Source: Polyangiales bacterium
GTDB lineage: Bacteria > Myxococcota_A > Polyangia > Polyangiales > Houyiibacteriaceae
DNA: 64,000 bases
Assembly: GCA_041576815.1 (NCBI GenBank)
Contig: JBFGKE010000001.1
Location: forward strand, 147,708 to 211,707
Direction: 5' to 3'
The position numbers and the translations under genes are program-made. The notes under the pieces were generated by a model. It did not search any database and had not been told where the DNA came from. It saw nothing but the letters and a program-made list of their open reading frames with translations. Of the stretch, positions 8,859 through 24,941 are shown piece after piece (the first letter of the stretch is position 1; every line of letters starts with the position of its first letter).

Positions 8859-11800
8859 ATGCCCGTGATCGATCGAACCCTGATTCCCGACTCCGCCGTT
8901 GCCGTCATCGGCATCGGCTGCTGGTACCCAGACGCGCCGAACCCATCGCGGCTCTGGGAGAACGTGCTGGCTCGTCGACTCGCGTTTCGTCGCCTCCCTG
9001 CTCAGCGTCTTCCGCTCGAGGCATACCACGACCCCGATTTTCGAACGCCGGACAAAACGTACGGACGCAAAGCCGCCGTCATCGATGGCTTCGAGTTCGA
9101 TTGGAAGAGGAGACGCATTCCGAAAAGCACGTTCGAAGGCACGGACATCGCCCATTGGCTTGCGCTCGAGGTCGCGCTTCAGGCGCTGTGGGACTCCGGG
9201 TATGGGCGGGGGACGCTGCCAAGAGAGCGCACGGGTGTGATTGTCGGCAATACGTTGACCGGCGAGCAGAGTCGCTCCACCAATTTGCGGATGCGGTGGC
9301 CGTTCGTCGAGCGTGCGATCCGTGCCGCTGCCAATCACGAGGGCATGAGCGTGCGCGCCACCAGTGATTTGATCGATTCCACGCGTTCGTACTTCAAGTC
9401 CGTCTTTCCGGCGGTCGACGAAGACACGCTTGCCGGGTCCCTTTCCAACACCATTGCGGGCCGGATCTGCAACTTCCTCGACCTTCAAGGAGGCGGGTAC
9501 ACCGTCGACGGGGCATGTGCGTCGTCGCTGCTGGCCGTGACCAACGCGGCCAACGTGCTGAGGAACGGCGACCTCGACGTGGCGCTCGTTGGTGGTGTCG
9601 ACATCAGCCTCGACCCGTTCGAGCTCGTGGGCTTTGCCAAAGTGGGCGCGCTGAGCCCGACGCAGATGCGGGTCTACGACCGCGCCGCGAACGGTTTCGT
9701 GCCGGGGGAGGGCTGCGGCTTCGTCGTCCTCAAGCGCCTCGAGGATGCGCGTGCGGATGGGGACTACATCTATGCGACGCTCCGCGGTTGGGGTGTGTCT
9801 TCGGACGGCGCGGGCGGGATCACCGCCCCGAGCGTCGCCGGCCAGGCGCTTGCGATTCGGCGTGCGTACAAGCGCGCGGGTTACTCCCCCGAGCTCCTCG
9901 ATTTCGTCGAGGGACACGGCACCGGCACCCCGGCGGGCGACCCGGTGGAGCTCAAGGCGATCGCGAGCGCGATGGAAGCGTACGGCGTGCGGAATCCGCG
10001 TCGGTGCGGCGTCACCTCCTTCAAGTCCATCGTCGGGCACACCAAGGCGGCTGCCGGCATCGGAGGTTTCATCAAGGCCGTCATGGCGGTGAATCGCCGG
10101 GTCATCCCGCCGACCTCTGGTTGCGTCGATCCCAGCGCGACCTTCGCAGACGACGCGCGCGTGCTCTACCCCGTGAAGACCGGGCACGTCGATTCGCCGG
10201 ACGAGGTCGTTCGGGCAGGCGTTTCCGCGATGGGGTTTGGGGGCATCAATACGCACGTGACGATCGAGTCGTGCGACCCTCCTGCATCACGGCTCAGGCC
10301 CTCCCTCGACGAGGATGTGCTGCTCGCCTCTGCACAGGACACCGAGCTGTTCGTGATGTCGGCCGCCAGCGTCGATGCGCTCAAGAAGCGCGTCGAGCAA
10401 GTTGCGGCACGCGCGGACGGCACCAGCACGGGCGAGCTCGGCGATCTTGCTGCCGAGCTCTCGCGAGAAGCGGCTCCGGACGGCTTGGTTCGGACCGCGG
10501 TCATCGCTGGCGACCCGGATGAGCTCGAGGAGCGCCTTCAAGAGGTTCTCGACGTGCTGAACGCCGAGCCGCCGGGCGAGGGAACGGTCGTACGCTGTCC
10601 GCGCGCCCGGCATCGCGCTTGGCTTTCGAATGCGCCCCGGCGGCCCCGGGTGGGGTTTCTTTTCCCGGGGCAGGGCTCGCAGCAGCTCGGCATGGCGCGT
10701 CGGCTCGTGCGACGCTTCGATTGGGCCAAGCGGTTCGCAGAGCAGACCGATGTGTGGCTGGCCGAGCTCGGGTGCGAGCCCGTGACCCCGTTGGTGTTCC
10801 GGCCCGTGGAGCGCGCACACGACCAAGAGCAGGTGCGTGACTGGGCACGGACGCTCCGCCAAACCGAACACGCCCAACCCGCCATCTGTTTCGCGAGCGC
10901 GCTGTGGTTGAAGTACCTCGCGAGACTGGGGGTGACCCCTGACTTCGTGGGCGGTCACAGCTTGGGGGAGCTGAGCGCGTTTCATGCAGCCGGCGCGCTC
11001 GACGAGCGCGCACTCCTTCAACTGGCGGCGACGCGCGGCAAGATCATGGCAGGCGCGAGCGCCTCGGGAACGATGGCAAATCTCTCGTGTACGCGCCAAG
11101 AAGCCGAGGCCCTGATCGCCGAGGTCTCCGGATACGCGACGATTGCAAACCTGAATGCATCCGATCAAACCGTCGTCTCGGGCGACCGCGAGGCGGTGGA
11201 GCAGATCGTCGAGCTGGCCAAGAAGCGCGCGATGGCCGCAGCGCCGCTCGCGGTCTCCGCGGCGTTTCATTCGGCCCACTTTCACGAGGCTGCGTACGCG
11301 CTCCGGCAAGCGGACGGTGTGCCGGAGATCTCGAACCCGATGCATGTGCCTGCGATCAGCGCGATCGACGGCACCGAGATTCGCACGGGGGTTTCGATGC
11401 GAGATTACTTGGGGCGCCAGATGTGCGCCGAGGTCGACTTCGTGAGGCTGGTGCGCGCGATGGACGAACGCTGCGACCTCCTCCTCGAGGTCGGGCCCGG
11501 GCGCGCTCTGAGCGGCCTCGTCAAACGGATCATCGACGACGAGCGTTTGAGCTGCTTCCCCCTCGAATCGCGGCCCGACAAGGATGAAGACCTCCACGTC
11601 GCCATTGCGGCGCTTTTCGTCGGCGGTCGGCGTCTTCGACTCGATGCGCTCTACGAGGGCCGTCTCAGCAGGCCGTTCATCCCGGCATCTCGAAGAAAAT
11701 TCATCGAGAACCCGTGCGAGCGTCCCTTCGTCGACGAAATTGCGGCTCGAGTCACGACGAGCGCCTCCCATCAGCCAGCGCTCTCAGTTCTGCCGCAGGC

Positions 11801-14800
11801 AGGGTCCGACGAGCACGCCAGGGAGGCGGAGCCACCACATCGCAGCGTCATCGAATCCCAGATCGTCACGAAGCCCTCCGTGCACGGCGCCGTTCTCGCA
11901 TCGGTGGAGGCGCAAACGGGGTTCCCGATCGAGACTCTGACCCTCGACCTCAGGCTCGTGGATGACCTTCACCTCGATTCGATCAAGACCGTGGAGCTGG
12001 TCTCCGAGGTCGCTGACCAGCTCAAAATCGAGGTGGATTTCGACGCGGCGCAGTTTGCAGACGTGACGCTCGGAGAGTTGGTCGAGCGGATGGAGGCTCT
12101 GCAGACCGATTCCTCACCGGCGCCGGCTCTCGACTCGGTGGGCGCCGCGGGCGCGACGCGGAGCACGTCGGCGCGCGAACGGCCCTGGGTGGCGAATTTT
12201 GCGCTCGAGTGGAAGGAATCCACGTTGCCCCCAGCGCCGGAGTACAACGATCTGAAGACGGGGCGCGCTCTCTTGGTGGCGCCCGACCCTTCTGATGGTC
12301 TCGTCACGGATCTCGCAAGGGAGCTCGGCAAGCGGGGCGTCGACGTGATCGTGTCGGGGTCCAGGCTGGACTCCGACGGGGACGCGCCCGTGGATCACCT
12401 GCTGGTCGTGAGCCCGGACGCGAGCGCTTCGGACGACGTTGCGGCATTGCACGAGGTCGTCGAGCTCTACACGGGCGCCGCGCGTCTGCTGCCATCGACG
12501 GGAGCGCGCCACGGAGGCGCCTCGTGCGTGGCGTGGATTCGAGCGCGCTCATCCGAGCCGCAGGCGAACGGCCACGCCGACTGGGCGGCAGATGCGTTCG
12601 CCGCCACGGTTCACCTCGAGCGAAGGCAGCTTCGCGTTCGTTCGCTCGACTTCGCCGGCGCCGACCTTCAACCCGGTCGCATCGCGGAGGCCCTTGTCGA
12701 AGAGCTCGCGGGCGACGGGACGTTCGAAGCGGCGCGCTATGACCGCGCGGGGCGACGCTCGGTGGGAGTGCCCACGCTTCAGTCCCGAACGGCGTACAAA
12801 CGCCGAACCACGGCCATATGCGCGGACGACGTCGTGCTGGTCACGGGCGGAGCCAAGGGAATCACCGCAGAATGTGCTCTTGCGCTCGGGCGCGAGACAA
12901 GGGCCACGATGGTTCTCGTGGGCAGCTCGGCGGCGCCCGAGGACGCTGCCGAGCCCGACCCGGGGAACGAGATCGGTGCGACCTTGGCGAGGTTCCGAGC
13001 GGAGGGGCTCCGGTGCCACTATCGCCAGTGCAATCTGGCGGTGCGCGACCAGGTGAACCGCCTCGTCGCGGGCGTGCAGCGCGACTTCGGCTCGCTCGAT
13101 GCGGTCGTCCACGGCGCCGGGCTCAATCGGCCGCGTCCGGTCGAGGAGCCTGACGCCGCGGAAGTCCTCTCCGAGATCGAACCGAAGCTCGCGGGAGCGC
13201 TTCATCTCTTCGAGGCGCTCGATTCGGCGCCTCCCAAGATGTTCGTCGCCCTCACCTCGATCATCGGCGTGGTGGGAATGCCGCGCAATGCCTGGTACGG
13301 CTTTTCAAACCAAGCTCTGGACCGCAGCCTCGAGCGCTTTGCGGCTCGCCATCCGTCCGTCGAGACCCTGTCCGTGGCGTACAGCGTCTGGGACGAAGTC
13401 GGCATGGGCGCGAAGCTCGGAAGCATCGAAAGGCTCGCGAAGCTCGGCATCGACGCGATCCCGGTGGAGGAAGGGGCCGCGCGTTTTCTGGAGCTCGTGG
13501 TGCGTGACCCGGGAACGCGCGAGGTCATCGTGGCCGCACGTTTGGGCGGCCTCGATACGTGGCGTCCCGCGCTGCCGCCGCTGCCGCGGGCCCACCGCTT
13601 CATCGACCAGATCGTGAGGCTCGAGCCGGGGCGTGAGCTCGTCTGTCGGACCAAGCTCGACGTCGAGCGAGACCCATATGTCGAGGATCACGTGTATGAG
13701 GGCGCCCGTCTCTTGCCGGCGGTGTTCGGCATCGAAGCGATGGCCGAGGCCGTCGCACACGTCACCGGTCGACCCGAGCTCCCTTTCCCGCTTTGGCTCG
13801 AGGACGTCGAGCTAAGGCGGCCGCTCGTCGTTCATCCGGAACGTGGGCTGCTGATCGAGATTCGCGCGCGAGTCGACGACGGTGACTTGTTCGAGTCGGC
13901 GCCACAGCGGATTCGCGCAGAGGTCCGCTGCCAACAGACGGGGTTCGCGAGCGCTCACTTTTCAGCATGTTTCGTTCTCGGCGCCGACACGAAAACGGGC
14001 GCGCGGTTTTTCGAGATGCCGGCCGAAGCTTTGCCCATTCGACCGCGCCAGCATCTGTATGGCTCCGTTCTCTTCCAGGGCCCGCGGTTTCAGCGAATCG
14101 AGAAGGTCTTCGCGCTCGACGCGCAGAGATGTGTCTTCGCCGCGGAGCGGGACCCGACACGCGAGAGCTGGCTCCTCGGCGATCCGTATTTCCGGGACGC
14201 TCTGCTCCAGAGCCTGCAGCTTTGCGTCGTGCCGGATCAGTGCCTGCCGGTACGCGTCGATCGCTGGGAGATTCACGGCCAACCGGCAAAGAGGGAGAGG
14301 GGCCTCGCACGGGCCACGATCGACGGCCACGAAGACGACACGTACATCGGGACCGTGAATGCCGTCAGCGCAGACGGATCGCCGCTCGAGAGCCTCCTCG
14401 GCTACCGCGCACGCACGCTGTCCCAACGACAAGACTGGCCCCGCGCGGCCGAGCTCGCCTCGCGCGGTGCTGTCCCGGCCGTTCCGCTTCGCGTGATTCA
14501 CGGCGATGCCCTGGAAGACGACGTGCGCATCCAGGTGAATCGGCCCGAGCCATGGGACGGCGGGGTCTTTTATCGAGATGTGCCCGGCTACGGCCACGAA
14601 GGCCAAACGGCGTTTTTCTGTCGTTTTCCCTTGAGCGCGCAGGATTCCTCCTCGGTGAGCGGGTCACTGAACTTCACCAGCTACTTCCGGTGGGCGGGCA
14701 AGCTTCGGGAGTGGGGCGGGATGAACACCCCGGGCGTCTACGAGGGCATCCTCGAAATGCTCGGCTCGAACTCGGTGATGTCGGCGACGAACGAATGCGA

Positions 14801-15590
14801 GACTCGCATCTTCAAGGTGCCGAAGCGCAACGACTTCATCGAAGGCCGGTATTGGATGGAGTACGTCAACAAGGGCGACGCGGGAAACATCTTCGAGTGG
14901 TGGCGCATCCCTTTCCCGAGCGGCGAGCCCGAAATGATCGCGTGGACGAAGATGCGGATCTCGGCGGTCAAGTCGGTGCGCCACGGCGTCATCTCCGCCA
15001 CGGATTGGCCAGACTTCTTGTACCGGTTCTTGAAAGACATGGGAGACGATGCGCCCGAGCCCACGGTCGGCCCCGCGCTCGAGCTCGACCTCGGCGCCAC
15101 CCTGTTTGCCAAGGTGCCGGGGCCTCAGCCGGGCCCGCTCCTCGCCGAGCAAACCTACTCCACCGCAACAGAGGACTCCAACGTCGTCGGCAACATCTAC
15201 TTCGCGAACTACAGCGCGTGGCAAGGTCGACTGACGGACGGGTTCTTTCACTCCCTGGCGCCGCACCTCTTCGAAGAGCGCGGCACGCACGGAGAGCTCC
15301 ATCGTGCTCAGACCCGCATCAGCCAGCTCCGAGATGCGATGCCGTTCGACGAGGTTGGCGTTCTCATGCGTCTCGAGGAGCTTTACGAGCGCGGGGCGCG
15401 GTTGAGCTTCGAGTTTTTCCGGAAAGAGCCAGCCGGCGTCACCAAAATCGCCGCGGGGCGCAACCTCATCGCGTGGGCGACGCTCGAGCGCGGCGCAGCG
15501 CCTCGACCGTTGCCATGGCCGGAGGAGCTCCGCGACGCGCTTCTAGCAGCCACGGGACAAAGCGTGCGCATCTCGCAGGGCCATGTCTGA
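8859..15590 (+). CDS. Enediyne-type (PksE-like) iterative type I PKS: KS-AT-ACP-KR-DH-TE(hot-dog)-TE(hot-dog)
   Basis: KS: LWENVLARR, GNTLTGE, EDTLAGSLSNTIAGRICN, DGACASS, EGHGTGT, GHTKAAAG. AT: FPGQGSQ, GHSLGE, AFHS. ACP: DDLHLDSI. KR: VTGGAKGITAECA, YGFSN. DH: DHVYEGARLLP, DPYFRDA. C-terminal hot-dog motifs: TSYFRWAGKLRE and EDSNVVGNIYFANYSAWQGR. Confidence 0.9.
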   Translation: MPVIDRTLIPDSAVAVIGIGCWYPDAPNPSRLWENVLARRLAFRRLPAQRLPLEAYHDPDFRTPDKTYGRKAAVIDGFEFDWKRRRIPKSTFEGTDIAHWLALEVALQALWDSGYGRGTLPRERTGVIVGNTLTGEQSRSTNLRMRWPFVERAIRAAANHEGMSVRATSDLIDSTRSYFKSVFPAVDEDTLAGSLSNTIAGRICNFLDLQGGGYTVDGACASSLLAVTNAANVLRNGDLDVALVGGVDISLDPFELVGFAKVGALSPTQMRVYDRAANGFVPGEGCGFVVLKRLEDARADGDYIYATLRGWGVSSDGAGGITAPSVAGQALAIRRAYKRAGYSPELLDFVEGHGTGTPAGDPVELKAIASAMEAYGVRNPRRCGVTSFKSIVGHTKAAAGIGGFIKAVMAVNRRVIPPTSGCVDPSATFADDARVLYPVKTGHVDSPDEVVRAGVSAMGFGGINTHVTIESCDPPASRLRPSLDEDVLLASAQDTELFVMSAASVDALKKRVEQVAARADGTSTGELGDLAAELSREAAPDGLVRTAVIAGDPDELEERLQEVLDVLNAEPPGEGTVVRCPRARHRAWLSNAPRRPRVGFLFPGQGSQQLGMARRLVRRFDWAKRFAEQTDVWLAELGCEPVTPLVFRPVERAHDQEQVRDWARTLRQTEHAQPAICFASALWLKYLARLGVTPDFVGGHSLGELSAFHAAGALDERALLQLAATRGKIMAGASASGTMANLSCTRQEAEALIAEVSGYATIANLNASDQTVVSGDREAVEQIVELAKKRAMAAAPLAVSAAFHSAHFHEAAYALRQADGVPEISNPMHVPAISAIDGTEIRTGVSMRDYLGRQMCAEVDFVRLVRAMDERCDLLLEVGPGRALSGLVKRIIDDERLSCFPLESRPDKDEDLHVAIAALFVGGRRLRLDALYEGRLSRPFIPASRRKFIENPCERPFVDEIAARVTTSASHQPALSVLPQAGSDEHAREAEPPHRSVIESQIVTKPSVHGAVLASVEAQTGFPIETLTLDLRLVDDLHLDSIKTVELVSEVADQLKIEVDFDAAQFADVTLGELVERMEALQTDSSPAPALDSVGAAGATRSTSARERPWVANFALEWKESTLPPAPEYNDLKTGRALLVAPDPSDGLVTDLARELGKRGVDVIVSGSRLDSDGDAPVDHLLVVSPDASASDDVAALHEVVELYTGAARLLPSTGARHGGASCVAWIRARSSEPQANGHADWAADAFAATVHLERRQLRVRSLDFAGADLQPGRIAEALVEELAGDGTFEAARYDRAGRRSVGVPTLQSRTAYKRRTTAICADDVVLVTGGAKGITAECALALGRETRATMVLVGSSAAPEDAAEPDPGNEIGATLARFRAEGLRCHYRQCNLAVRDQVNRLVAGVQRDFGSLDAVVHGAGLNRPRPVEEPDAAEVLSEIEPKLAGALHLFEALDSAPPKMFVALTSIIGVVGMPRNAWYGFSNQALDRSLERFAARHPSVETLSVAYSVWDEVGMGAKLGSIERLAKLGIDAIPVEEGAARFLELVVRDPGTREVIVAARLGGLDTWRPALPPLPRAHRFIDQIVRLEPGRELVCRTKLDVERDPYVEDHVYEGARLLPAVFGIEAMAEAVAHVTGRPELPFPLWLEDVELRRPLVVHPERGLLIEIRARVDDGDLFESAPQRIRAEVRCQQTGFASAHFSACFVLGADTKTGARFFEMPAEALPIRPRQHLYGSVLFQGPRFQRIEKVFALDAQRCVFAAERDPTRESWLLGDPYFRDALLQSLQLCVVPDQCLPVRVDRWEIHGQPAKRERGLARATIDGHEDDTYIGTVNAVSADGSPLESLLGYRARTLSQRQDWPRAAELASRGAVPAVPLRVIHGDALEDDVRIQVNRPEPWDGGVFYRDVPGYGHEGQTAFFCRFPLSAQDSSSVSGSLNFTSYFRWAGKLREWGGMNTPGVYEGILEMLGSNSVMSATNECETRIFKVPKRNDFIEGRYWMEYVNKGDAGNIFEWWRIPFPSGEPEMIAWTKMRISAVKSVRHGVISATDWPDFLYRFLKDMGDDAPEPTVGPALELDLGATLFAKVPGPQPGPLLAEQTYSTATEDSNVVGNIYFANYSAWQGRLTDGFFHSLAPHLFEERGTHGELHRAQTRISQLRDAMPFDEVGVLMRLEELYERGARLSFEFFRKEPAGVTKIAAGRNLIAWATLERGAAPRPLPWPEELRDALLAATGQSVRISQGHV

Positions 15591-18279
15591 CGCAGCGAGT
15601 CGCATTTCAGGTCCAGCGACTTTCGACGAAGCGCGGCGGAAGACGAACATTCAGGGCCTGAAAGCGGCGACCCTCTCGGCGCTCGTCGTCGTGTCGTCTT
15701 TTGCGTGGGTGGAGTACTACCAGGTCCGAGAGCATTTCTGGCTTCTTCAAACGCTCCGCGGAGTTTGTCTGGCCGTGCTTGCGGTGATCGCGTTCGCGGC
15801 ATTCCGCGCGCGGCCATGGACGGTCCGTCACGTGGACGCTCTGACGATCGGTGCGTTCCTGGTCTGCGGTTGGTACAGCATCACGCTCATGCTGCTTCAC
15901 GATGGGTACAACTCCGAGTTCTTTCTCACGCTCGTCTTCATCATCGTAGGAGTAGGCGCGGTCACCCTTTGGCCGATCGAGACCGCGTTGGTCTACATGC
16001 TCCTCATCATCGTCTCCTATCTCGCGCCGCTCCTCTTCGGCCTCGCCGAGGTGAAGAAGGGGGACGTGTTCCCGATCCATCTCAGCTTCCTGCTCGGAAT
16101 GGCGATGATCAGTGTCGTCGCGCAACAGCTTCGCTACCGAATCGAGAGGCGGGAGTTTCTGACCAGCCGAAGCCTCGAGGAAACCAAGGCCTCTCTCGAG
16201 GTGGCGTACGACCGGCTCAAGGAGCTCGACCAGCTCAAAACCGACTTCTTTGCGAACGTTTCCCACGAGCTTCGAACGCCCCTTACGCTTTCGCTCGGGC
16301 CGCTGGAGTCGCTGCTGCGGGAACGACACCGGCCCGAGGTCGAAGAGCAGCTCGAAGGCCTCCGGCGAAACCAGCTCCGGCTGCTCCGCTTGATCAACCA
16401 GCTGCTCGATTTCGCGAAAGTGGAGTCCGGCAACGTCCAAGCGGAATTCGGCAAGGAGGACGTAGCCGCCTTGGCGCGCCGGCTGGTTGGCGATGTCGAA
16501 GGCGCTGCCGGAGCGAAAAGCCTCGAGATCGAGCTCGCCGTGCCGTCGGAGCCGGTGTGGCTTTACATCGATCGCGAAAAGCTCGAACAGACGCTCCTCA
16601 ACCTGCTCTCGAATGCCTTCAAGTTCACGCCAAAGGGCGGCCGCATCACCGTGAGGGTGAGGGAGCTCGATCAGGCGGTGGAGATCCGCGTGAGCGACAC
16701 AGGCATCGGGATCGACCCCGACAAGATCCACACGATTTTCGACCGGTTCGCCCAGGCGGACTCGTCCGAGACCCGCCGCTACGCGGGGACGGGGATCGGC
16801 CTTTCCCTGGTGAAGACCAACCTCGAGCTTCACGGCGGCACGGTCGACGTGCAGAGCGAGCCTGAGCGCGGCACGACGTTCATCCTCTCGATTCCTCGCG
16901 GCAAGGCGCACCTCCCCGACGCACACGTGTTCGAGCATTCGCGAACGCCGGCGGAGTCGGCCCTGAAAGCCGAGCAGCTCGTCGAGTTCGCGGCCGAGCC
17001 CCAGGAAGAGCCGGCCGACGCCCATGCGGCAGACCAAGCCCTGCGGCTCGATCAACTCGATGAAGACGAGGACGACCCCGTCTCCGTGGATTGGGTCAAC
17101 CGGCTCTTCGAAATCGACGATGACAAGCCCCGCGTGCTCGTCGTCGACGATGCCGCGGACATGCGGCGGTATCTATGCTCGATCCTCGAGCCCGATTACG
17201 AAATCAGAACTGCCAAGGATGGCGCCGAAGGCTTGCAGGAGGCCACACGCTGGGATCCCGACCTCGTCGTGTCCGACGTCATGATGCCGGTGATGTCGGG
17301 CTCCGAGCTGTGTCGGGCGATCAAGCGCGCAGGAGGGCGGCTCGCGCGCACACCGGTCATCCTCGTGACGGCGCGCGCCGAGGAGCAGTCCAAGCTGCGC
17401 GGGCTCGGATATGGGGCTGACGACTATCTCCTGAAGCCGTTTCTTCAGGACGAGCTCCTCCTTCGCGTGCGAAATCTCGTGACGAAGCGCCGTCAAGAGC
17501 GTGCGCTCTTCGACGCGCACCTCACGCTGCGCGCGCAGCACGACAACCTGCTTTCGGACCTCGAGCTCGCCCGCAACTTTCAGGAGAGCTTGCTTTCCAA
17601 GCTCGAGATGCCCGAGCCGCTCGACGCGCACGTGGAGTTCCACCCCGCGGACGTCGTGGGCGGCGATTTTTATCACCTCACGTCGCTCGGCCCGAGTCGT
17701 GTCCGGCTGTTCGTCGCGGACATGGTCGATCACGGGGTCAAGGCTGCCGTGCGGGCGGCGGCGGCGTGGCCGGAGTACACGAGCCTCGAGCATCCTGAGC
17801 TCGGCCCGGCCGACGTTCTGACGCGCCTCAACGATGTCGCCACCTCGAAGTATGCCGACCTGTCCGGGAGCTTTCTCTGTCTCGATCTGGACACCGCGGC
17901 CGGCGCACCGACCTCGGCTTGCTACGCCCAGGCCGGCGAAATGCCGTTCATCGTGATGGCCAACGGATCATTCGAGACACCCCCTCACACCGAAGGGTTC
18001 GTCGTCGGCTTGTTTCCCGGCATGAGCTACCAGTCGCGGGAGCTGAGCCTCACCCCCGGCACCCGTCTGTTTCTTTACTCCGATGGCCTGTACACTCAAC
18101 CTGACCACACGGGGCAGACCTTCCGTGAGGGGGGGTTGAAAGAGGCCTGGAGCATCGCGATGGGGCACACCGACATCCGAGCGGCAACCGAGGAGATCAT
18201 CGAATCGATGAAGCGGTTTCGCGGCATGACGGCGCAGCTCGACGACGTGACGCTGATCGGCATCGAGGTAGGGAAATAG
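15583..18279 (+). CDS. Membrane hybrid sensor: 6 TM helices - HisKA - HATPase - receiver - SpoIIE/PP2C phosphatase
   Basis: Six hydrophobic segments with short loops; H-box FFANVSHELRTPL; N-box NLLSNAFKFT; G-boxes SDTGIGI and GTGIGLSL; receiver VLVVDD...SDVMMP...LLKPF; PP2C ARNFQESLL, GGDFY, LYSDGL, DDVTLI. Overlaps the PKS stop by 8 nt. Confidence 0.9.
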   Translation: MSDAASRISGPATFDEARRKTNIQGLKAATLSALVVVSSFAWVEYYQVREHFWLLQTLRGVCLAVLAVIAFAAFRARPWTVRHVDALTIGAFLVCGWYSITLMLLHDGYNSEFFLTLVFIIVGVGAVTLWPIETALVYMLLIIVSYLAPLLFGLAEVKKGDVFPIHLSFLLGMAMISVVAQQLRYRIERREFLTSRSLEETKASLEVAYDRLKELDQLKTDFFANVSHELRTPLTLSLGPLESLLRERHRPEVEEQLEGLRRNQLRLLRLINQLLDFAKVESGNVQAEFGKEDVAALARRLVGDVEGAAGAKSLEIELAVPSEPVWLYIDREKLEQTLLNLLSNAFKFTPKGGRITVRVRELDQAVEIRVSDTGIGIDPDKIHTIFDRFAQADSSETRRYAGTGIGLSLVKTNLELHGGTVDVQSEPERGTTFILSIPRGKAHLPDAHVFEHSRTPAESALKAEQLVEFAAEPQEEPADAHAADQALRLDQLDEDEDDPVSVDWVNRLFEIDDDKPRVLVVDDAADMRRYLCSILEPDYEIRTAKDGAEGLQEATRWDPDLVVSDVMMPVMSGSELCRAIKRAGGRLARTPVILVTARAEEQSKLRGLGYGADDYLLKPFLQDELLLRVRNLVTKRRQERALFDAHLTLRAQHDNLLSDLELARNFQESLLSKLEMPEPLDAHVEFHPADVVGGDFYHLTSLGPSRVRLFVADMVDHGVKAAVRAAAAWPEYTSLEHPELGPADVLTRLNDVATSKYADLSGSFLCLDLDTAAGAPTSACYAQAGEMPFIVMANGSFETPPHTEGFVVGLFPGMSYQSRELSLTPGTRLFLYSDGLYTQPDHTGQTFREGGLKEAWSIAMGHTDIRAATEEIIESMKRFRGMTAQLDDVTLIGIEVGK

Positions 18280-18288
18280 AGCACACCG

Positions 18289-18711
18289 ATGGGACCTGCT
18301 GGAACATTCGAGTTGAAGGGCCATTCTCGACTCCAGATCGATCACCGGGTCGACGAGCATCACGAGCTCACGATCTGGTTCCAAGGAGATATGGTGGTGC
18401 GTCGGGGGACGCGTTTCGACCGATATCTCAGCCATTTGGAAGAACTGGCGGCGCTTGCCTGCGGGACCCCGGCAACCCACGTGCACTGCCACCTCGAGGA
18501 CCTCGGGGAGGCGCTTTCCCGTGCCCAGCACGCGATCTATCGAATGCTAAATGGCATGCGCGGACATGGAATCCCGATTACTATTTACGCGACGGGCGAA
18601 CGTCCAGAGCAATCGGAGCATCTGAAGATGTCCAAGCTCTTCGTGGAGGGGCTATCCAAGCAACCCGGGCCTCCGCTCGAGTTGGTGGAGATCAGGCGGC
18701 GAGCATCTTGA
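18289..18711 (+). CDS. STAS-like / SiaC- or Slr1659-like phospho-acceptor protein (putative)
   Basis: 140 aa; LTIWFQGD...VHCHLEDLGEALSRAQHAI...IPITIY aligns by eye with the STAS/SiaC topology; Ser77 sits at the anti-anti-sigma phosphorylation position. Context next to a PP2C and a kinase supports the call. Confidence 0.55.
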   Translation: MGPAGTFELKGHSRLQIDHRVDEHHELTIWFQGDMVVRRGTRFDRYLSHLEELAALACGTPATHVHCHLEDLGEALSRAQHAIYRMLNGMRGHGIPITIYATGERPEQSEHLKMSKLFVEGLSKQPGPPLELVEIRRRAS

Positions 18712-19259
18712 GCAAAGATTCCCAAGTCATGTATGACCTGCTCCTCAAGCCGCTCCGGTTCGATCCGGAGCTGACCGAGTCGGTCATCTTCGGGTTGAAG
18801 TGGACCCTGAGTTCGATGTTTGCCGACCCGTTTCCGGTCCGCGACGTGGTTGTCGCCGTTCGCGAGGTCGTCGACAACGTCTTGACGCACGCCGATTGGG
18901 ACGCGTCGCCGGCGCCTTCGCTTTACGTCCGCTACCGGCTTCACAAAGGCAAGCCCCAGCTCTGCGTGTCGACCACGAACGCGGTCAAAGACGTCGAAGA
19001 GGCGCAGCGCGCGCTGCGCTTCGTGAAGGAATACGTGGGAAGCAAGTCTCCCGCCGCGCTTCATCGCGAGCTCACGGCGCACCTCATCGAATCGGCCAGC
19101 ATTCGCAACAACGGGGGCATCGGCCTTCTACAGGTCGCCTCGTCTCCGCGCTGCAAGCTCGACATCCGCCTCGAAGGACAGGTGTTCCACGTACGGGTCG
19201 ATGTGAATGTGCCGCAGCTTCAAGCGGCCCCGGCGCTCCAAAACCGCACCGGGTCCTAA
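18708..19259 (+). CDS. HATPase_c-like Ser/Thr kinase (SiaB/Slr1658/anti-sigma-like)
   Basis: N-box AVREVVDNVLTHA, VSTTNAV, G2-like NNGGIGLLQVA; TTG start overlaps the upstream TGA (an ATG at 18729 is an alternative). Confidence 0.65.
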   Translation: MSKDSQVMYDLLLKPLRFDPELTESVIFGLKWTLSSMFADPFPVRDVVVAVREVVDNVLTHADWDASPAPSLYVRYRLHKGKPQLCVSTTNAVKDVEEAQRALRFVKEYVGSKSPAALHRELTAHLIESASIRNNGGIGLLQVASSPRCKLDIRLEGQVFHVRVDVNVPQLQAAPALQNRTGS

Positions 19260-19388: not shown

Positions 19389-22300
19389 ATGGCCGTCGAC
19401 TTAGTCGTTTTACCCACTCAATCCGGCCAACCCGGCTATCAGCGCGCCCCCGTTGTAATTCTGCTCACGTTGGTTTCGGCGCTCGGCGTCTCGGTGGGCG
19501 TAGAAGCCCAGTGCTCGACGGCCGACGCCGACATGAACGGCGTGCCTGACGTCTGTCCGGCGGGCTCCAACTACATCGCCGGAACCGGTGGAGACGACAA
19601 GCTGCGCGGGACAAACGGGCCAGACTGCATCTTCGGGTTTGGAGGCGACGACGACATCGATGGCCGCAAGGGCGACGACTACATTTGCGGTGGGGCCGGC
19701 GACGACAAGCTCAAGGGCAAGGACGGCACCGACATCATCCACGGCGGGGACGGCGCCGACGAAATCAAGGGCGGCAACGGCAACGACGCCCTGAGCGGGG
19801 GGCCGGGGATCGACACGGTCGACGGGGGCAACGGCACCGACTCCTGTGTCGAAGAGGTGCCTGGAACCTCCCAGGGTCTGACCAGCTGCCAGCTTCTCAC
19901 CTACGCCAACGTGAGCGGCCTCGAGGTTTCGCAAGACGACACGGGCTTGCTCGTCACCTGGGAAACCACCACCGAGGTGGGCTCGGTGGCCTTCCGCCTG
20001 TGGCGGAGTGACGCCGATGGCCGCCTTCGGTGGGTTGGCGAGGTGCCCGCCGCGCCCGAAGGTGAAGTGCACGGAGCGCGCTACTTCCTCCGCGACGACG
20101 AGGCGCCGCTCGACAGCACCGTCGAATACATCATCGAGGAGCGCACGGTCTCGGGAGGGAGCGTACAGTACGGCCCGTACGTTCGAAACCCCGAGCCCGT
20201 GGACGCTCGCTTCGCGTTCGCGCGTGTCCGCTCCCGAGCTGCCGGCCGCGTCCCGCGCGAGATCGAGCTACGCCGTAGGGCGCGGCCAGTGCGCGCGCAC
20301 TCGCTCCGGTCGGCCGCGCGGAAGAGCGCCGCGGCGGTCTCTGCGGCGGTTCTGACGGTCGCCGAGCCGGGTGTCGTCGAAGTCGATGCCGGGACGCTGG
20401 CCGACGTGTTCGGGGCGAGCCGGGACGGCGCTGCAGGACTGATTCAGTCCGGCGGGCTCGATCTCCGCCTACGCGGAGAGCCCGTGGCGTGGCACCCAGT
20501 CGGCGACGGAGCTGCGCTCCGGTTCGTCGCCCCTGAAATCAATTCGCCGTTCTCTCGCGAGCACCGCTACCTCCTTTCGATCAATGACGGCCTGACGATG
20601 GAGGCGGCGGTGCTCGTCGAGGGGGCTGCGATGGCGCCTCACACGTTCGTCGCGACGAAGCGGTTCGAAGAAAACGTGTTCCCCGGACCGACGGGAGGCC
20701 CCGACCCCCGCCAAGACCTCTTCTTCTGGCATGCGCTTTCCTCCGAGGCGGAGGCGGTCATCCCGGTTTCGCTTCCCGGGCTGGTCGACGCCGGCGCGGA
20801 AGAGCTTCGGGTCTACGTCCACGGAGCGACCGAGCATCCGGAGCAGCCACACCTCGTCGAGCTTCGTTGGAACGGGCAGAGCCTCGGCACGTTCGAGCTC
20901 TTCGGGCGAAGCCGACACGCGATTCACGTGCCTCTCGACGGCGTGAGCGTCGCCGCGCTGAACGAGCTCGTCGTCGTGCAGCACGTTGCAGGGGAAGCGC
21001 CGCCCGTCCTCTACGTCGATGCCCTCGAGGTGGATTACGCGCGTTTCGCCGAGGCGGATGCGCCCTCGTTCGGTTTCGGCGCGGCCAGTGACGGCACGCA
21101 GCGCGTGACCGGTCTCACGTCTCAAACGGTTCATCTCTACGACGTCACGGACCCGAGCGCGCCGCGGCACTACGGTGAGGTGCCTGTCGACGAATCGGGG
21201 GGCCTGGGCTTTACGTCGGAGGCGCACGCCGGTCGTTTCCTCGCCGCAGCCCCAGAGAGCGTGTCGGTGCCGGTCGCGGTCGCACCGCACGACGCCGCCG
21301 ACCTCCGCTCCCCCGACCTCCGGGTCGACTACCTGGTCGTCGCGGCATCGCACCTGGTCGAGGAGGCGCAAACGCTTGCAGGCCATCGAGAGGCCGACGG
21401 CTATCGCACCCTGGTGGTCGACATCGACGATGTCTTTTGGGCGTTCGCCGACGGCGAGCCCGACCCCCTCGCGGTTCGCGACCTTCTCGCGTTTGCATCG
21501 CGCCAGTGGGCGGTCGCACCGCGATTCGCAGTGCTCGTCGGCAAGGGCAGCATGGACTACCGAGACCTGATCGGGCTCGGCGGCAACTGGCTGGCGCCGG
21601 CGCTCGCCGAGACCGACGGCGGCCTGTTCCCCTCGGATTCGATGCTCGGGGACATCGTCGGTGATGACGGCGTACCCGAGATCGCGATCGGTCGCTTGCC
21701 GGTGACGACGGCCGACGAGCTGAGCCGCGCGCTCGACGCGATTCGGTCGTTCGAAGCCAATCACGAGACGATGAAGGCGCTCTTCGCGGCCGACGACTCC
21801 GAGCGCGGCGAGTTCGTAGCCACCGCCCGCGCGCTTGCCGCGGACGTGGCACCGGGGCGCCTCGATGAGATCGACCTGAATACCGAAGCCCTAGAAGAGG
21901 CTCGACATCGACTGCGGTCCGCGTGGCAGAGCGGCGTCAGCTGGCTGACGTATGTCGGACATGGGGGCCTCGATCGGTTGTCGACCGAGGGCCTGCTCAC
22001 CACCGCAGACCTCCCCGAGCTCGCGCAGACCCCAAGCAGCCCGGTCGTGCTCGGTTGGAGCTGCAACATCGCCCGATTCGACATCCCCGGCTTCGCATCG
22101 CTCGGAGAGCAGCTGGTGGTCGACGGGGGGAGCGCGGCGGTCTTCAGCGCGACCGGCTGGTCGAATCACGTCGAGACCGATGAGCTTCGACAGGCCTTCA
22201 ACGCGGCGGTGTTTGCCTCCGATGCGGAAACCCTCGGCGACGCCATGCTCCGCGCACATGAGGCGGCCGCGAACGCTCCGGTGGCCCAGCATCGAGTGTA

Positions 22301-22547
22301 CCTGCTCCTCGGAGATCCCGCGCTTCGGCTTCGGGCCCCCAAGGCGGCCGCGGCACCAGAGCCCGCCCCTCCAGTGCCGTCCGACGACCCATCGCGCAAC
22401 CCGGTTCAAACCTCTAGTGAAGTCGAGGTTTCGACCGACGCCGGCTCCAGCTGCGCCGTTCGGGCGCCGGGCGCCGGGGAAGGGCCGAGCGGCTTGGCGC
22501 TCCTGGTGTCGGGAGCGCTCCTCGCGGCTCGCCGCAGGCGTCGCTGA
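19389..22547 (+). CDS. Secreted C25 (gingipain-like) cysteine peptidase with RTX Ca-binding repeats and a MYXO-CTERM-like tail
   Basis: GGxGxD nonapeptide repeats near the N-terminus; C25 motifs DYLVVA, DGEPDPLAVRD, PEIAIGRLP, YVGHG (His), GWSCN (Cys), YLLLGDPAL; C-terminus SSCAVRAPG...LALLVSGALLAARRRRR. Confidence 0.85.
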   Translation: MAVDLVVLPTQSGQPGYQRAPVVILLTLVSALGVSVGVEAQCSTADADMNGVPDVCPAGSNYIAGTGGDDKLRGTNGPDCIFGFGGDDDIDGRKGDDYICGGAGDDKLKGKDGTDIIHGGDGADEIKGGNGNDALSGGPGIDTVDGGNGTDSCVEEVPGTSQGLTSCQLLTYANVSGLEVSQDDTGLLVTWETTTEVGSVAFRLWRSDADGRLRWVGEVPAAPEGEVHGARYFLRDDEAPLDSTVEYIIEERTVSGGSVQYGPYVRNPEPVDARFAFARVRSRAAGRVPREIELRRRARPVRAHSLRSAARKSAAAVSAAVLTVAEPGVVEVDAGTLADVFGASRDGAAGLIQSGGLDLRLRGEPVAWHPVGDGAALRFVAPEINSPFSREHRYLLSINDGLTMEAAVLVEGAAMAPHTFVATKRFEENVFPGPTGGPDPRQDLFFWHALSSEAEAVIPVSLPGLVDAGAEELRVYVHGATEHPEQPHLVELRWNGQSLGTFELFGRSRHAIHVPLDGVSVAALNELVVVQHVAGEAPPVLYVDALEVDYARFAEADAPSFGFGAASDGTQRVTGLTSQTVHLYDVTDPSAPRHYGEVPVDESGGLGFTSEAHAGRFLAAAPESVSVPVAVAPHDAADLRSPDLRVDYLVVAASHLVEEAQTLAGHREADGYRTLVVDIDDVFWAFADGEPDPLAVRDLLAFASRQWAVAPRFAVLVGKGSMDYRDLIGLGGNWLAPALAETDGGLFPSDSMLGDIVGDDGVPEIAIGRLPVTTADELSRALDAIRSFEANHETMKALFAADDSERGEFVATARALAADVAPGRLDEIDLNTEALEEARHRLRSAWQSGVSWLTYVGHGGLDRLSTEGLLTTADLPELAQTPSSPVVLGWSCNIARFDIPGFASLGEQLVVDGGSAAVFSATGWSNHVETDELRQAFNAAVFASDAETLGDAMLRAHEAAANAPVAQHRVYLLLGDPALRLRAPKAAAAPEPAPPVPSDDPSRNPVQTSSEVEVSTDAGSSCAVRAPGAGEGPSGLALLVSGALLAARRRRR

Positions 22548-22586
22548 TCTGTTCGGTCTCCGGCTGATTTCTGCGATACTTCAGGC

Positions 22587-24941
22587 GTGCGTTGGGCGCG
22601 AATCACTTGGCTCGGGGCCTTGTTCGTGCTTTCCGCGCCGGTCGCGGCTCAGGCCCAGTCGTCGACCGCGGTGCCCAAGCGGGTCGGGTCGGCCGCCGGC
22701 GCCGTGCTCTTGGTGGAGGGGCCCGGGGTCGTGGAGGTCAGCGCGTCGTCGCTTGCCGAGGCGCTCGACAGCACGGCCGCGGATGTGTCGAGCCTCGTGC
22801 GGTCGGGATGGCTGGACCTACGGCTCGGCGGCGAGTCGATCGCCTGGCATGCGGTCGACGGCGGCGAGGCCCTTCGGTTCGTGACTCCGGATGTCCGTTC
22901 TCCATTCTCCCGCGACCACCGAGTCCGGGTGTCGATGGAGCAGGGGTCGACGATGCCGTCGCGGGGGCTCGTGCCTCTCCTCGCGGGCGCGCCCCACACC
23001 TATCTCGAGACCACGCGCCTCGAGGAAAACCTCTTTCCGGGCCCGTCGGGCGCTCCCGACCCTCGGCAGGACCTGTTCTTCTGGCATGCCCTGTCTTCGG
23101 GCGCGGAGGTGGAGATTGCGGTGCCGTTGCCGGCGCTCGGCGCGCCGTCCGCGGCGGAGCTCCGAGTCTACGTCCACGGGGCGACCGAGCATCCCGATCA
23201 GCCGTTTCGCGTGGAGCTCCACTGGAACGGGCAGAGCGTGGGCGTGTTCGACCGAATGGGCCGAGCGCGGTACACGATCGCGGCAGCTCTAAGCGGCATC
23301 GCGGCGACGCCCGACAACGAGCTCGTCGTGCAGCAGCACGTCGCTGGCGACGAAGCCCCGGTGCTCTACCTCGATGCGGTCGAAGTGGACTACGTGCGGT
23401 CCGCAGAGGCCGACTCTCCGTCATTTCGATTTTCAGGGGCCGCAGACGGCGTTCACTCGGTGATCGGGCTTTCTGCGAACGCCACGCTTCTCTACGACGT
23501 CACCGACCCCATGGCCCCAGCGCGGTATGACCGCGTCGTCCTGAACGAGCAGGGCGGCCTCCGCTTCGCAACCGAAGGGTCCGATCTGCGCTTCGTCGTC
23601 GCGACGCCGGAAAGCATCATCACCCCGGTTGAAATTCGCCAGCATTTGCCGACGGATCTGCGCGGGACCGATCGCGAGGTCGACTATCTGATCATCGCGC
23701 CCGCGCACCTGTTGGCCGCTGCGGAGGCACTGGCCGATTACCGCGCAGCCGACGGCTATCGCGTCCTCTCCGTCGACATCGAGGACGTCTACTGGGAGTT
23801 TGCCGACGGCGAGCCGGACCCTTTCGCAATCCGGGAATTCCTGGCCTTTGCCACCGAGCACTGGCGGACGGGCCCGAGGTTCGTCGTGCTGATCGGGAAC
23901 GGAAACCTCGACTATCGCGACCTGATGGGGCACGGCGAGAACTGGCTTCCGCCGGCGCTTGCGGTCACCGATGGCGGCCTCTTCCCCTCGGACTCGATGC
24001 TCGCGGACTTGGTCGGCAATGACGGAGTTCCCGAGATCGCCATGGGACGTCTTCCGATCGAGCGCGGAGAGCAGCTCGGCCCCATTCTCGCATCGATCGA
24101 ATCGTTCGAGGCGACCCACGACTCGATGGACGTGCTCTTCGCGTCGGACGACTCGCAGTACGACGAGTTCATCGCAGCGTCCCGTCTGCTTTCGGCTTGG
24201 GTGGCGCCGGACCGAGCGCTCGAGATCGATTTGACGGTCGAGACTCCGGACGAGGCCCGCAGCCGGCTTCTGTCGATGTGGAGCACGTTGGGATGGATGA
24301 CCTACGTGGGGCACAGCAGCATCGACCGCATGGCGGCCGAGGGACTGGTGACGCTCACGGATGTCGCCGCGCTCGCCGAGCGTTCGACCACGCCCGTCGT
24401 GCTCGGCTGGACGTGCAACATGGTTCGCTTCGATATCCCTGGGTTTTCCTCTCTCGGCGAGCAGCTCCTCGTCGAGGGCGCGAGCGCCGGAATTTTTAGC
24501 GCGACCGGCTGGTCGAATCACTTCGAAAGCGACCTCCTTCGCGTCGCGTTTACCGAGGCGGTCTTCGACTCCGACGCCGAGACGATTGGGGACGCCATGC
24601 TGCGGGCACACCGCGCCGCAGCGAACGCATCGCTGCCACAGCACCGGGTCTACTTGCTGCTCGGCGACCCGGCGCTTCGGATCCGCGGCAAAGCGCGATC
24701 GGATCCAGAGCCTCCGTCCAATCCCGATCCGCCATCGAATCCGGTGTCGAGCGCCGGCCCGAACGAGCCCTCCGACCCCGCAACGGCTGTCGAGGCTTCG
24801 TCTCAATCCGCGACTGGATGCGAAATTGCACGCCCCGGCACGCATCGGGGGCCTCTGGGATCGGCCGTCTGGCTGCTCGCGATCGTCTGGGGCGCCCGCG
24901 GGACGTTTACTTCGCAGCGCCGTCGACTTCGCCTTCATTGA
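22587..24941 (+). CDS. Second C25 (gingipain-like) peptidase, paralog of the upstream gene without the RTX region, MYXO-CTERM-like tail
   Basis: Signal peptide ending AQA; shared motifs PDPRQDLFFWHALSS, YVGHS, GWTCN, SATGWSNH, YLLLGDPAL; tail GCEIARPG...AVWLLAIVWG...RRRLR. Confidence 0.85.
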   Translation: MRWARITWLGALFVLSAPVAAQAQSSTAVPKRVGSAAGAVLLVEGPGVVEVSASSLAEALDSTAADVSSLVRSGWLDLRLGGESIAWHAVDGGEALRFVTPDVRSPFSRDHRVRVSMEQGSTMPSRGLVPLLAGAPHTYLETTRLEENLFPGPSGAPDPRQDLFFWHALSSGAEVEIAVPLPALGAPSAAELRVYVHGATEHPDQPFRVELHWNGQSVGVFDRMGRARYTIAAALSGIAATPDNELVVQQHVAGDEAPVLYLDAVEVDYVRSAEADSPSFRFSGAADGVHSVIGLSANATLLYDVTDPMAPARYDRVVLNEQGGLRFATEGSDLRFVVATPESIITPVEIRQHLPTDLRGTDREVDYLIIAPAHLLAAAEALADYRAADGYRVLSVDIEDVYWEFADGEPDPFAIREFLAFATEHWRTGPRFVVLIGNGNLDYRDLMGHGENWLPPALAVTDGGLFPSDSMLADLVGNDGVPEIAMGRLPIERGEQLGPILASIESFEATHDSMDVLFASDDSQYDEFIAASRLLSAWVAPDRALEIDLTVETPDEARSRLLSMWSTLGWMTYVGHSSIDRMAAEGLVTLTDVAALAERSTTPVVLGWTCNMVRFDIPGFSSLGEQLLVEGASAGIFSATGWSNHFESDLLRVAFTEAVFDSDAETIGDAMLRAHRAAANASLPQHRVYLLLGDPALRIRGKARSDPEPPSNPDPPSNPVSSAGPNEPSDPATAVEASSQSATGCEIARPGTHRGPLGSAVWLLAIVWGARGTFTSQRRRLRLH

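Follow-up and report, generated by a model that had tools for sequence, protein, structure and literature searches.

A polyketide synthase and an adjacent six-helix sensor kinase as a candidate signal-receptor pair in uncultured Polyangia-class myxobacteria

Co-diversifying pairs of a synthase and a receptor are a textbook subject of social evolution, and the known examples (agr, comQXP) are peptide-based and belong to the Firmicutes. In staphylococcal agr there are discrete allelic specificity groups, in which the signal genes and the sensor half of the kinase are hypervariable and the cytoplasmic kinase half is conserved (PMC10482373). In the comQXPA locus of Bacillus a polymorphic modifying enzyme, signal and receptor define communication groups that coexist within one species (PMC4408185). 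In the pairs CqsA/CqsS (signal CAI-1) and RpfF/RpfC (signal DSF), the gene for the synthase of a lipophilic signal lies next to that for a hybrid kinase, whose multi-helix sensor is nearly loop-less. We know of no pherotype-like hypervariable block in either of these two. The locus described here lies in a window of 64,000 nucleotides (the whole stretch of DNA that was analysed; positions 147,708 to 211,707 of contig JBFGKE010000001.1, assembly GCA_041576815.1) of a Polyangiales bacterium, whose assembly measures 3.7 Mb and is 99.6% complete. It contains the gene of an iterative type I polyketide synthase (PKS), followed directly by the gene of a hybrid histidine kinase with a sensor domain of six transmembrane helices (6TM).

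The genes of the locus are co-directional on the forward strand, in the order regulator (8016-8834), PKS (8859-15590), kinase (15583-18279), a 140-aa protein (18289-18711) and a 183-aa protein (18708-19259). A hypervariable block spans the boundary between synthase and kinase. Its left half is the C-terminal double hot-dog domain of the PKS, here called TE2 (14499-15587, ~360 aa, occurring in discrete types), and its right half is the 6TM sensor domain (15583-16197, residues 1-205 of the kinase). We lean, without great confidence, towards the explanation that the 6TM bundle senses the product, or the product-loaded release domain, of the upstream PKS, such that TE2 and 6TM would together form a specificity module.

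The likeness to agrBDCA lies in this block, which here joins the release domain of the PKS to the 6TM sensor and has a sharp edge at the junction between the transmembrane (TM) region and the DHp domain. In agr, however, the signal is not a polyketide but a ribosomal thiolactone peptide; AgrC, a HPK10 kinase, works with the LytTR regulator AgrA, the sensors share no sequence homology, and cross-inhibition between groups is on record for agr. As in comQXPA, the synthase and receptor genes are adjacent and on the same strand, but that system signals with an isoprenylated peptide, and the multi-TM sensor of ComP is a different one, to which Pfam and NCBIfam searches revealed no homology. The features of a pherotype locus that were found here are thus same-strand adjacency, a hypervariable block of synthesis and sensor regions, and six matched TE2-TM types, with an exception in two genomes (G004 and G020).

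A comparison with CqsS and RpfC had been made in the preliminary description of this DNA, and what stands of it is the likeness in design: a loop-less multi-helix sensor on a hybrid kinase, encoded beside a synthase. The 6TM design of CqsS is shared by the membrane anchor of adenylyl cyclases, and a swap with CqsS gives a ligand-regulated enzyme (PMC4821796); these interchangeable anchors are themselves among the fold matches of the window domain. A sequence relationship was not found, as no curated CqsS-like or RpfC-like model in NCBIfam or Pfam matches the TM domain. Moreover, the synthase is a 2243-aa iterative PKS and not a PLP-dependent acyltransferase (CqsA) or a crotonase (RpfF), and the predicted output is PP2C partner switching and not an Hpt relay. 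The likeness to CqsS can therefore be regarded as a fair analogy of design, whereas membership of the same family is not supported. Pairs of synthase and receptor that share a co-varying hypervariable block are known as such; what is new lies in the proposed chemistry, in the sensor domain and phylum, and in the output through a PP2C partner switch. In the literature that was searched, no PKS/6TM-kinase pair and no polyene autoinducer is described for Myxococcota.

Pairing of synthase and sensor, and the hypervariable block

The 6TM domain and the PKS tail were searched separately in the same 101 related genomes; 35 regions or contigs were fetched, onto which all cassette domains were mapped. 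All genomes are uncultured metagenome-assembled genomes (MAGs), and functional statements rest on comparative genomics. The co-occurrence of the TM family with the PKS, which the preliminary description had put forward for checking, is borne out: a 6TM-domain gene lies directly behind 21 of the 23 PKS tails, on the same strand. The remaining two tails are one that is cut by a contig end (G013) and one of a distant PKS without a 6TM neighbour (G062). The same arrangement is present in metagenome contigs from four other samples (L004-L006, L088 and L089). The source names of the homologous proteins are Polyangiales, Myxococcales or Deltaproteobacteria MAGs, and one contig with the cassette derives from a Tara metagenome.

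Two classes of cassette could be distinguished. Class I, to which the window belongs, has the order CarH-like regulator, PKS, kinase (6TM, histidine kinase, receiver and PP2C domains), STAS-fold protein and GHKL-like protein. Class II lacks the CarH-like regulator and consists of the PKS, a kinase in which the PP2C domain is replaced by a second histidine kinase, and a receiver-HATPase protein; its genes were called from lists of open reading frames (ORFs) and Pfam, as a filter on third-position GC content (GC3) was uninformative there. Since the pairing survives this change of output, the constant partnership is that of the PKS with the 6TM domain and not of the PKS with one pathway. The PKS and the 6TM kinase are supported as a conserved genetic pair. 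Within the 6TM superfamily the linkage is confined to the clade around the window domain (E<=1e-20), in which 20 loci have upstream sequence: a PKS is present in 18 of them, and the remaining two have lost it by deletion. A class II cassette on contig C4 of G012 (L040, 1775-12546) encodes, in this order, the PKS, a 6TM-HisKA-HATPase-receiver protein with a second HisKA/HATPase pair, a 394-aa receiver-HATPase protein and an uncharacterised 156-aa protein, and no CarH-like regulator is found upstream.

The kinase cores are well conserved within groups, with identities of 85-91% in a class I subgroup (G036a, G039, G024, G005 and G023b), 87-92% in class IIa (G004, G020, G017, G023a and G036c) and 88-90% in class IIb (G007, G012 and G044), whereas the TM types inside each group are only 28-35% identical to one another (26-46% between types overall). 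TE2 identity amounts to 64-91% within a type and 30-49% between types. The change is abrupt: in nucleotide windows of four independent pairs (G039 and G023b, G017 and G036c, G017 and G004, G007 and G012) the TM/DHp junction is exactly where identity rises from ~40-50% to 85-95%, with the natural breakpoint at about residue 205 of the kinase. Between G027 and G024 identity dips only over TE2 and TM, and the left edge of the dip is the DH/TE2 junction. The differences between TM types are distributed over all six helices.

Six types are matched across the gene boundary: A with A (the window, JGI, G027, Tara and G034a), B with B (G024, G005 and G036b), C with C (G012, G044, G051a, G051b and G036c), D with D (G017, G023a and G007), E with E (G080 and G093) and F with F (G034b and G085). 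The genomes with two or three pairs (G034, G036, G023 and G051) hold different types. In partial Mantel tests the TM domain followed TE2, both when controlled for the kinase core (r 0.61, p 1e-4) and when controlled for the DH domain (r 0.64, p 1e-4), whereas it did not follow DH when controlled for TE2 (r -0.02, p 0.60). In class II alone, the correlation of the TM domain with its own kinase core was not significant (r 0.22, p 0.11), while that with TE2, controlled for the kinase core, was high (r 0.72, p 1e-4). The sensor thus tracks the tail of the adjacent gene more closely than the remainder of its own protein, which argues against physical linkage as the whole explanation. By analogy with known pairs, the joint exchange of TE2 and sensor types on a constant kinase reads as the genetic signature of a signal-maker and its receptor.

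The TM domains are under purifying selection within types (dN/dS 0.07-0.3, near the values of the kinase core, with many dS values saturated), and the variation is therefore one between discrete functional alleles; relaxed selection or decay as the source of the hypervariability is ruled out by the same values. Assembly chimeras as the origin of the mosaics were also ruled out, as every type is shared by several genomes, on contigs that are 226-635 kb long. Two further observations concern single pairs of loci. Between G024 and G005 (L041 and L042) the TM domains are 65% identical, against 91% for TE2 and 87% for PP2C, and TM dN and dS are both elevated; a further, TM-limited replacement may have taken place inside type B. 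The DH, TE2 and TM segments of G044 (contig C325, L059) and G051 (contig C224, L060) are 100% identical, although the two are different species-representative genomes; this points either to one population that was binned twice or to a very recent transfer of the cassette.

The synthase tail and the six-helix sensor

The PKS is a single-module iterative type I enzyme with the domain order KS-AT-ACP-KR-DH, followed by TE2 (Pfam matches ketoacyl-synt, Acyl_transf_1, PP-binding, KR, PKS_DH_N/PS-DH and a weak 4HBT_2); an ER domain is absent from the Pfam matches. The second hot-dog domain of the tail (15147-15545) is homologous to the ACP-polyene thioesterases of enediyne systems, as found with phmmer against PDB sequences (SgcE10, 4i4j, E 1.4e-13; CalE7, 2w3x, E 2.4e-13; DynE7, 2xfl, E 2.8e-12). 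As this domain belongs to the SgcE10/CalE7/DynE7 family, the product is most likely a linear, lipophilic conjugated polyene that is released and partitions into the membrane. In enediyne systems the synthase PKSE releases, together with a hot-dog thioesterase, a conjugated heptaene (e.g. PMC9682884, on PKSE-bound polyenes). The window PKS has the same domain order and a homologue of the same thioesterase, but here it is duplicated and part of the PKS polypeptide, where it occupies the place of the PPTase domain of PKSE, for which Pfam gives no match at the C-terminus. Nor is the PKS flanked by an enediyne cassette (E3/E4/E5), its neighbours being the regulator, the kinase and the partner switch. 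For the KS-AT region, the 60 matches listed from the PDB sequences include no enediyne PKS, and the closest of them are type I PKS entries of other kinds.

The kinase encoded by the 15583-18279 ORF has 898 aa, and its residues 1-205 fold into six membrane helices, none of the loops between them being longer than 10 residues. The topology given in the preliminary description (six TM segments, short loops, no periplasmic domain) agrees with both hydropathy and structure prediction. Kyte-Doolittle analysis gives six hydrophobic segments within residues 26-183, and an AlphaFold2 model of this region (residues 1-205; alignment of 23 sequences; pLDDT 90, pTM 0.83) has helices at 14-47, 49-75, 84-106, 114-127, 132-151 and 162-204. 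They correspond to a cytoplasmic N-helix (residues 14-25), TM1 (26-47), TM2 (49-75), TM3 (84-106), TM4 (114-127), TM5 (132-151) and TM6 (162-185), followed by a signalling helix. The outward-facing loops measure only about 1, 7 and 10 residues, so that the kinase has no periplasmic domain, and the Lys/Arg counts are consistent with an N-in/C-in topology. TM6 continues as one uninterrupted helix into the linker to HisKA. Neither Pfam nor the model reveals a HAMP, PAS or other sensor domain between the two, which leaves the bundle and the receiver domain as the only candidate inputs of the kinase.

The position of the kinase start inside the final PKS codons, as described earlier, was confirmed in the sequence: the two genes overlap by 8 nt (ATGTCTGA, 15583-15590), with the ATG at 15583 in the context CAG GGC C-ATG-TC-TGA and the PKS stop codon at 15588-15590. 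This start is supported by the conservation of the N-terminal motif F14..R18..N22 in all homologues. The overlap is limited to types A and E; elsewhere the two genes are 8-170 nt apart. Of the TM domain, R18, F52, Q56, S111 and W130 are invariant; the scaffold kept across types consists of these residues, P131 (in W130-P131), G172 and R184.

Searches of Pfam and NCBIfam with the 23 TM domains (E<=1) gave chance-level matches only and no sensor family. A precomputed label "MASE8 (weak)" (PF20968) on two proteins (P0004 and P0014) was not reproduced by hmmscan of these proteins or of the 23 TM domains (E cut-offs 5 and 1), and the 6TM domain was therefore not assigned to MASE8. The best PDB match of the model in Foldseek is the 6TM domain of the diguanylate cyclase ImcA of P. 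aeruginosa (8wcn, TMq 0.76, prob 1.00, E 4.9e-3; rmsd 2.9 Å over 194 columns, 20% identity), and homology to ImcA is not established, since the E-value is only 5e-3. The next matches are the 6TM anchors of the membrane adenylyl cyclases AC9 and AC5 (TMq 0.6-0.66) and Rv1625c (0.35). In ImcA the 6TM domain is needed for activity and for the membrane interaction with its partner IsmP (PMC10904736). The comparison extends to domain fusions, as the superfamily of the window domain also includes fusions to GGDEF, but ImcA has no PKS neighbour and its 6TM region is known for activity and the interaction with IsmP and not for ligand sensing (PMC10904736).

Readings of the pairing

In the explanation that we favour, the 6TM bundle would be the sole sensory input of a hybrid kinase of the order 6TM-HisKA-HATPase-receiver-PP2C and would be matched to the PKS directly upstream. 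The iterative PKS, with no ER domain and with a fused polyene thioesterase, would release a lipophilic conjugated polyene into the membrane, where the loop-less bundle could perceive the polyene within the bilayer or, alternatively, perceive the product-loaded release domain. The signal would pass along the continuous TM6 helix to the kinase core, and phosphotransfer to the receiver would gate the PP2C domain, which would act on the downstream STAS-fold protein and GHKL-like kinase and so reset the partner switch. TE2 and 6TM would diversify and recombine as one unit into discrete types, with the kinase core conserved.

The confidence that we place in this explanation is that of two variants taken together. 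That the signal is intercellular and pherotype-like is a tentative suggestion; that each cell senses its own product is a slightly fainter one. Under the first variant, which we offer with due reserve, the marine Polyangia-class myxobacteria would have a polyketide-based cell-cell communication with pherotypes, in which orthogonal PKS/6TM types are exchanged as one cassette, up to three types occur per genome, and "eavesdropper" lineages have deleted the synthase and kept the receptor. If true, this would be the first polyketide-based quorum sensing with a pherotype structure, and the first such dedicated signal/receptor pair in the Myxococcota. The social behaviour of myxobacteria is known, whereas their chemical signals are poorly defined; here the genetic architecture of the peptide-based loci recurs in uncultured marine myxobacteria, with a polyene synthase of enediyne-like type and a hitherto undescribed 6TM sensor. 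Should the reading hold, PKSE-like synthases would acquire a function beyond enediyne clusters, and the orphan 6TM fold of ImcA and the membrane adenylyl cyclases would acquire a ligand class together with a natural panel of matched and mismatched receptors. The TM domains of membrane adenylyl cyclases have been a long-standing "blind spot" (PMC12414865). The system would be directly testable, as evolution supplies TM/TE2 swaps, receptor-only deletions and genomes with several types.

The receptor-only loci deserve separate attention. In G023b, compared with G024, the PKS has been removed by a clean in-frame deletion of 6,465 bp, which runs from about codon 11 of the PKS to the last ~55 codons of TE2; the two loci share 85-89% nucleotide identity in the flanks, and the type B kinase is intact. 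On the contig concerned (C259 of G023, L058, 3200-5100) the kinase is, relative to L041 of G024, preceded by a remnant in which about 11 KS codons run directly into about 55 TE2 codons. In G039, and in the same arrangement in L002 and L003, the synteny of the window is retained, the PKS is missing and the type A kinase is intact; in none of the three is a PKS tail found elsewhere in the genome, which for G039 is 100% complete. The TM domains of the receptor-only kinases have dN/dS values of 0.17-0.19 (0.17 in G039). It follows from these intact kinases that the receptor is useful without a synthase gene beside it. Both the sensing of an exogenous signal ("eavesdropping") and a stimulus that is independent of the PKS fit these loci.

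Several observations weigh against product sensing by the 6TM domain. The first of these is that, in the receptor-only genomes, the kinase retains a function with no PKS next to it. A second one concerns the superfamily: in the class as a whole, a profile of the 23 TM domains matches 60 of 401 genomes and 29 of 162 genera, and a complete PKS tail is present in only seven. The preliminary description had named a TM domain that is widespread without a synthase neighbour as the finding that would speak against a synthase-receptor pair, and at the level of the superfamily this is what was found. Of that proposed pairing, the conserved gene pair and the covariation of TE2 and TM hold, whereas an exclusive association of the superfamily with a PKS does not. 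Elsewhere the domain occurs in Pkinase-6TM-GGDEF and X-6TM-GGDEF proteins and in histidine kinases with or without a receiver and second kinase (6TM-HK(-REC-HK)), with no KS within 5-10 kb, and the superfamily as a whole is, by this comparison, a generic signalling module. It is small (of 1.84 billion representative proteins, 631 match the profile at E<=1e-3 and 27 at E<=1e-30), yet clearly broader than the PKS-linked clade. Third, the PKS of G125 and the 6TM kinase that matches best there sit on different contigs. Fourth, TE2 and TM are contiguous, so that one recombination tract could move both without a functional link; the controls for DH and the kinase core lessen this confound without removing it. 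Fifth, strict matching of TE2 and TM has been broken at least once, for in G004 and G020 the PKS tail is of type A (72-82% identity), while the TM domain beside it is C-like and shares ~33% identity with type A. Finally, ImcA, the closest solved fold, uses its 6TM region for activity and partner interaction with no known ligand (PMC10904736), and all the genomes are those of uncultured organisms.

Some other members of the superfamily, and one false candidate, were also seen. In family f34 (L073-L078, L081, L082 and L086) the 6TM domain stands between an N-terminal Ser/Thr kinase and a C-terminal GGDEF domain, or in an X-6TM-GGDEF arrangement, with no PKS nearby, as an undescribed modular membrane sensor domain. 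A metagenome contig (L090, 1191-2744) encodes a 6TM kinase with receiver and PP2C domains (profile E 1.6e-30), and in the position of the PKS it has a 517-aa ORF without a Pfam match. An ORF behind the PKS of G125 (L072, 11214-12668) that seemed to be coupled to it was rejected as a spurious antisense frame, with an Arg/Gly-rich translation.

The strongest of the rival explanations, though in our view an unlikely one, is that PKS and kinase are merely co-regulated neighbours without ligand matching. The operon would be light-controlled through the CarH-like regulator, the PKS would make a photoprotective polyene pigment, the 6TM domain would sense a general membrane cue or one of light or oxidative stress, and the joint variation of TE2 and TM would reflect contiguous recombination tracts. 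Conjugated polyenes are pigments, and a CarH-like regulator indeed stands at the head of the class I cassettes; the wide use of the 6TM module in signalling proteins without a PKS, the intact receptor-only kinases under purifying selection and the mismatch in G004 and G020 are all in line with it. What it does not account for is the repeated and exact coincidence of breakpoints with the TM/DHp boundary, nor the fact that the TM domain tracks TE2 rather than DH or the kinase core with which it is contiguous. A generic stress sensor, moreover, would need neither discrete types of ~30% identity nor two to three types per genome, and class II keeps the PKS-6TM pairing without CarH.

A physical interface between the two proteins would also lead to covariation. 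TE2 might bind the cytoplasmic face of a 6TM dimer, which would serve as a landing pad for the off-loading of the product; TE2 and 6TM would then co-evolve as an interface, and the kinase would report the occupancy or activity of the PKS and not the free product. This docking we hold to be rather improbable, a shade more so than co-regulation. The tightness of the covariation across the gene boundary and the translational coupling in types A and E would suit it, as would the fact that conservation within the domain is highest in the cytoplasmic N-helix and at the W130-P131 turn, and the 6TM region of ImcA mediates a partner interaction (PMC10904736). Yet the receptor-only loci are under purifying selection in genomes without any PKS, and the divergence between types is even over the six helices, with no concentration on the cytoplasmic faces.

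Lastly, that the polyene serves as a chromophore inside the 6TM bundle, giving a membrane light-sensing kinase functionally analogous to the histidine-kinase rhodopsins, is very improbable, for although a heptaene-like product, as the thioesterase homology would allow, absorbs near-UV or blue light, the class I operon has a light-sensor-type regulator and the modelled sensor has no exposed ligand site, the helices contain no conserved Lys, rhodopsins score poorly in the fold search (TMq <=0.26), class II cassettes lack CarH, and the receptor-only genomes would have no chromophore.

Kinase output and neighbouring genes

Behind the sensor, the kinase of the window has a core of HisKA (Pfam residues 219-283, with H228 in SHELRTPL) and HATPase_c (330-439) at 16237-16899, a receiver domain at 17134-17469 (Response_reg, 518-629, with D565 in VVSDVMMP) and a PP2C/SpoIIE phosphatase domain at 17695-18270 (SpoIIE, 705-896, E 3e-28); Pfam finds nothing in residues 1-205. 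The 140-aa protein encoded next (18289-18711) has no Pfam or PDB sequence match. Its STAS fold was found by fold search alone: the AlphaFold2 model (pLDDT 90) matches TM1442, SpoIIAA, RsbV and SiaC in Foldseek with TMq 0.55-0.61. S77-R78 is invariant in this protein, which is the likely substrate of the PP2C domain. The gene of the 183-aa protein (18708-19259) always lies directly behind that of the STAS-fold protein. Its Pfam matches, HATPase_c_2 (E 0.014) and DUF6272 (E 0.009), are weak and below thresholds, and a comparison with PDB sequences gave nothing significant, but the invariant residues E53..D56-N57..H61 and G136-G137-x-G139-L140 are GHKL-like, and the protein is likely the kinase of a partner switch. 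From the SpoIIE domain, the STAS fold of the 140-aa protein and the GHKL-like motifs of the 183-aa protein, the output of the kinase is predicted to be a partner switch that the receiver domain gates.

The order of a PP2C phosphatase, a STAS-fold protein and a GHKL-like kinase is that of RsbU/RsbV/RsbW and SiaA/SiaB/SiaC. In contrast to those systems, the PP2C domain of the window is fused behind a complete hybrid kinase, both partners fall below all Pfam thresholds, and the window contains no adjacent gene for a sigma factor or diguanylate cyclase as a target.

At the head of the cassette, the regulator gene (8016-8834) encodes a protein with a MerR-type helix-turn-helix (Pfam HTH_17/MerR_1) and a B12-binding region (B12-binding_2 and B12-binding). 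Read by eye in the translation, it contains the motifs Wx9EH (WSRGEISVGEEH) and ExHxxG (EDHALG), which are typical of the light-sensing CarH proteins. Every class I cassette is headed by such a CarH-like regulator, those without a PKS included, and the gene is 56-70% identical across all of them. On the other side, between the cassette and the nuo operon (19389-24941), the window contains two tandem paralogues of the gingipain family (Peptidase_C25), the first of which has RTX calcium-binding repeats; relatives (L002) have one copy.

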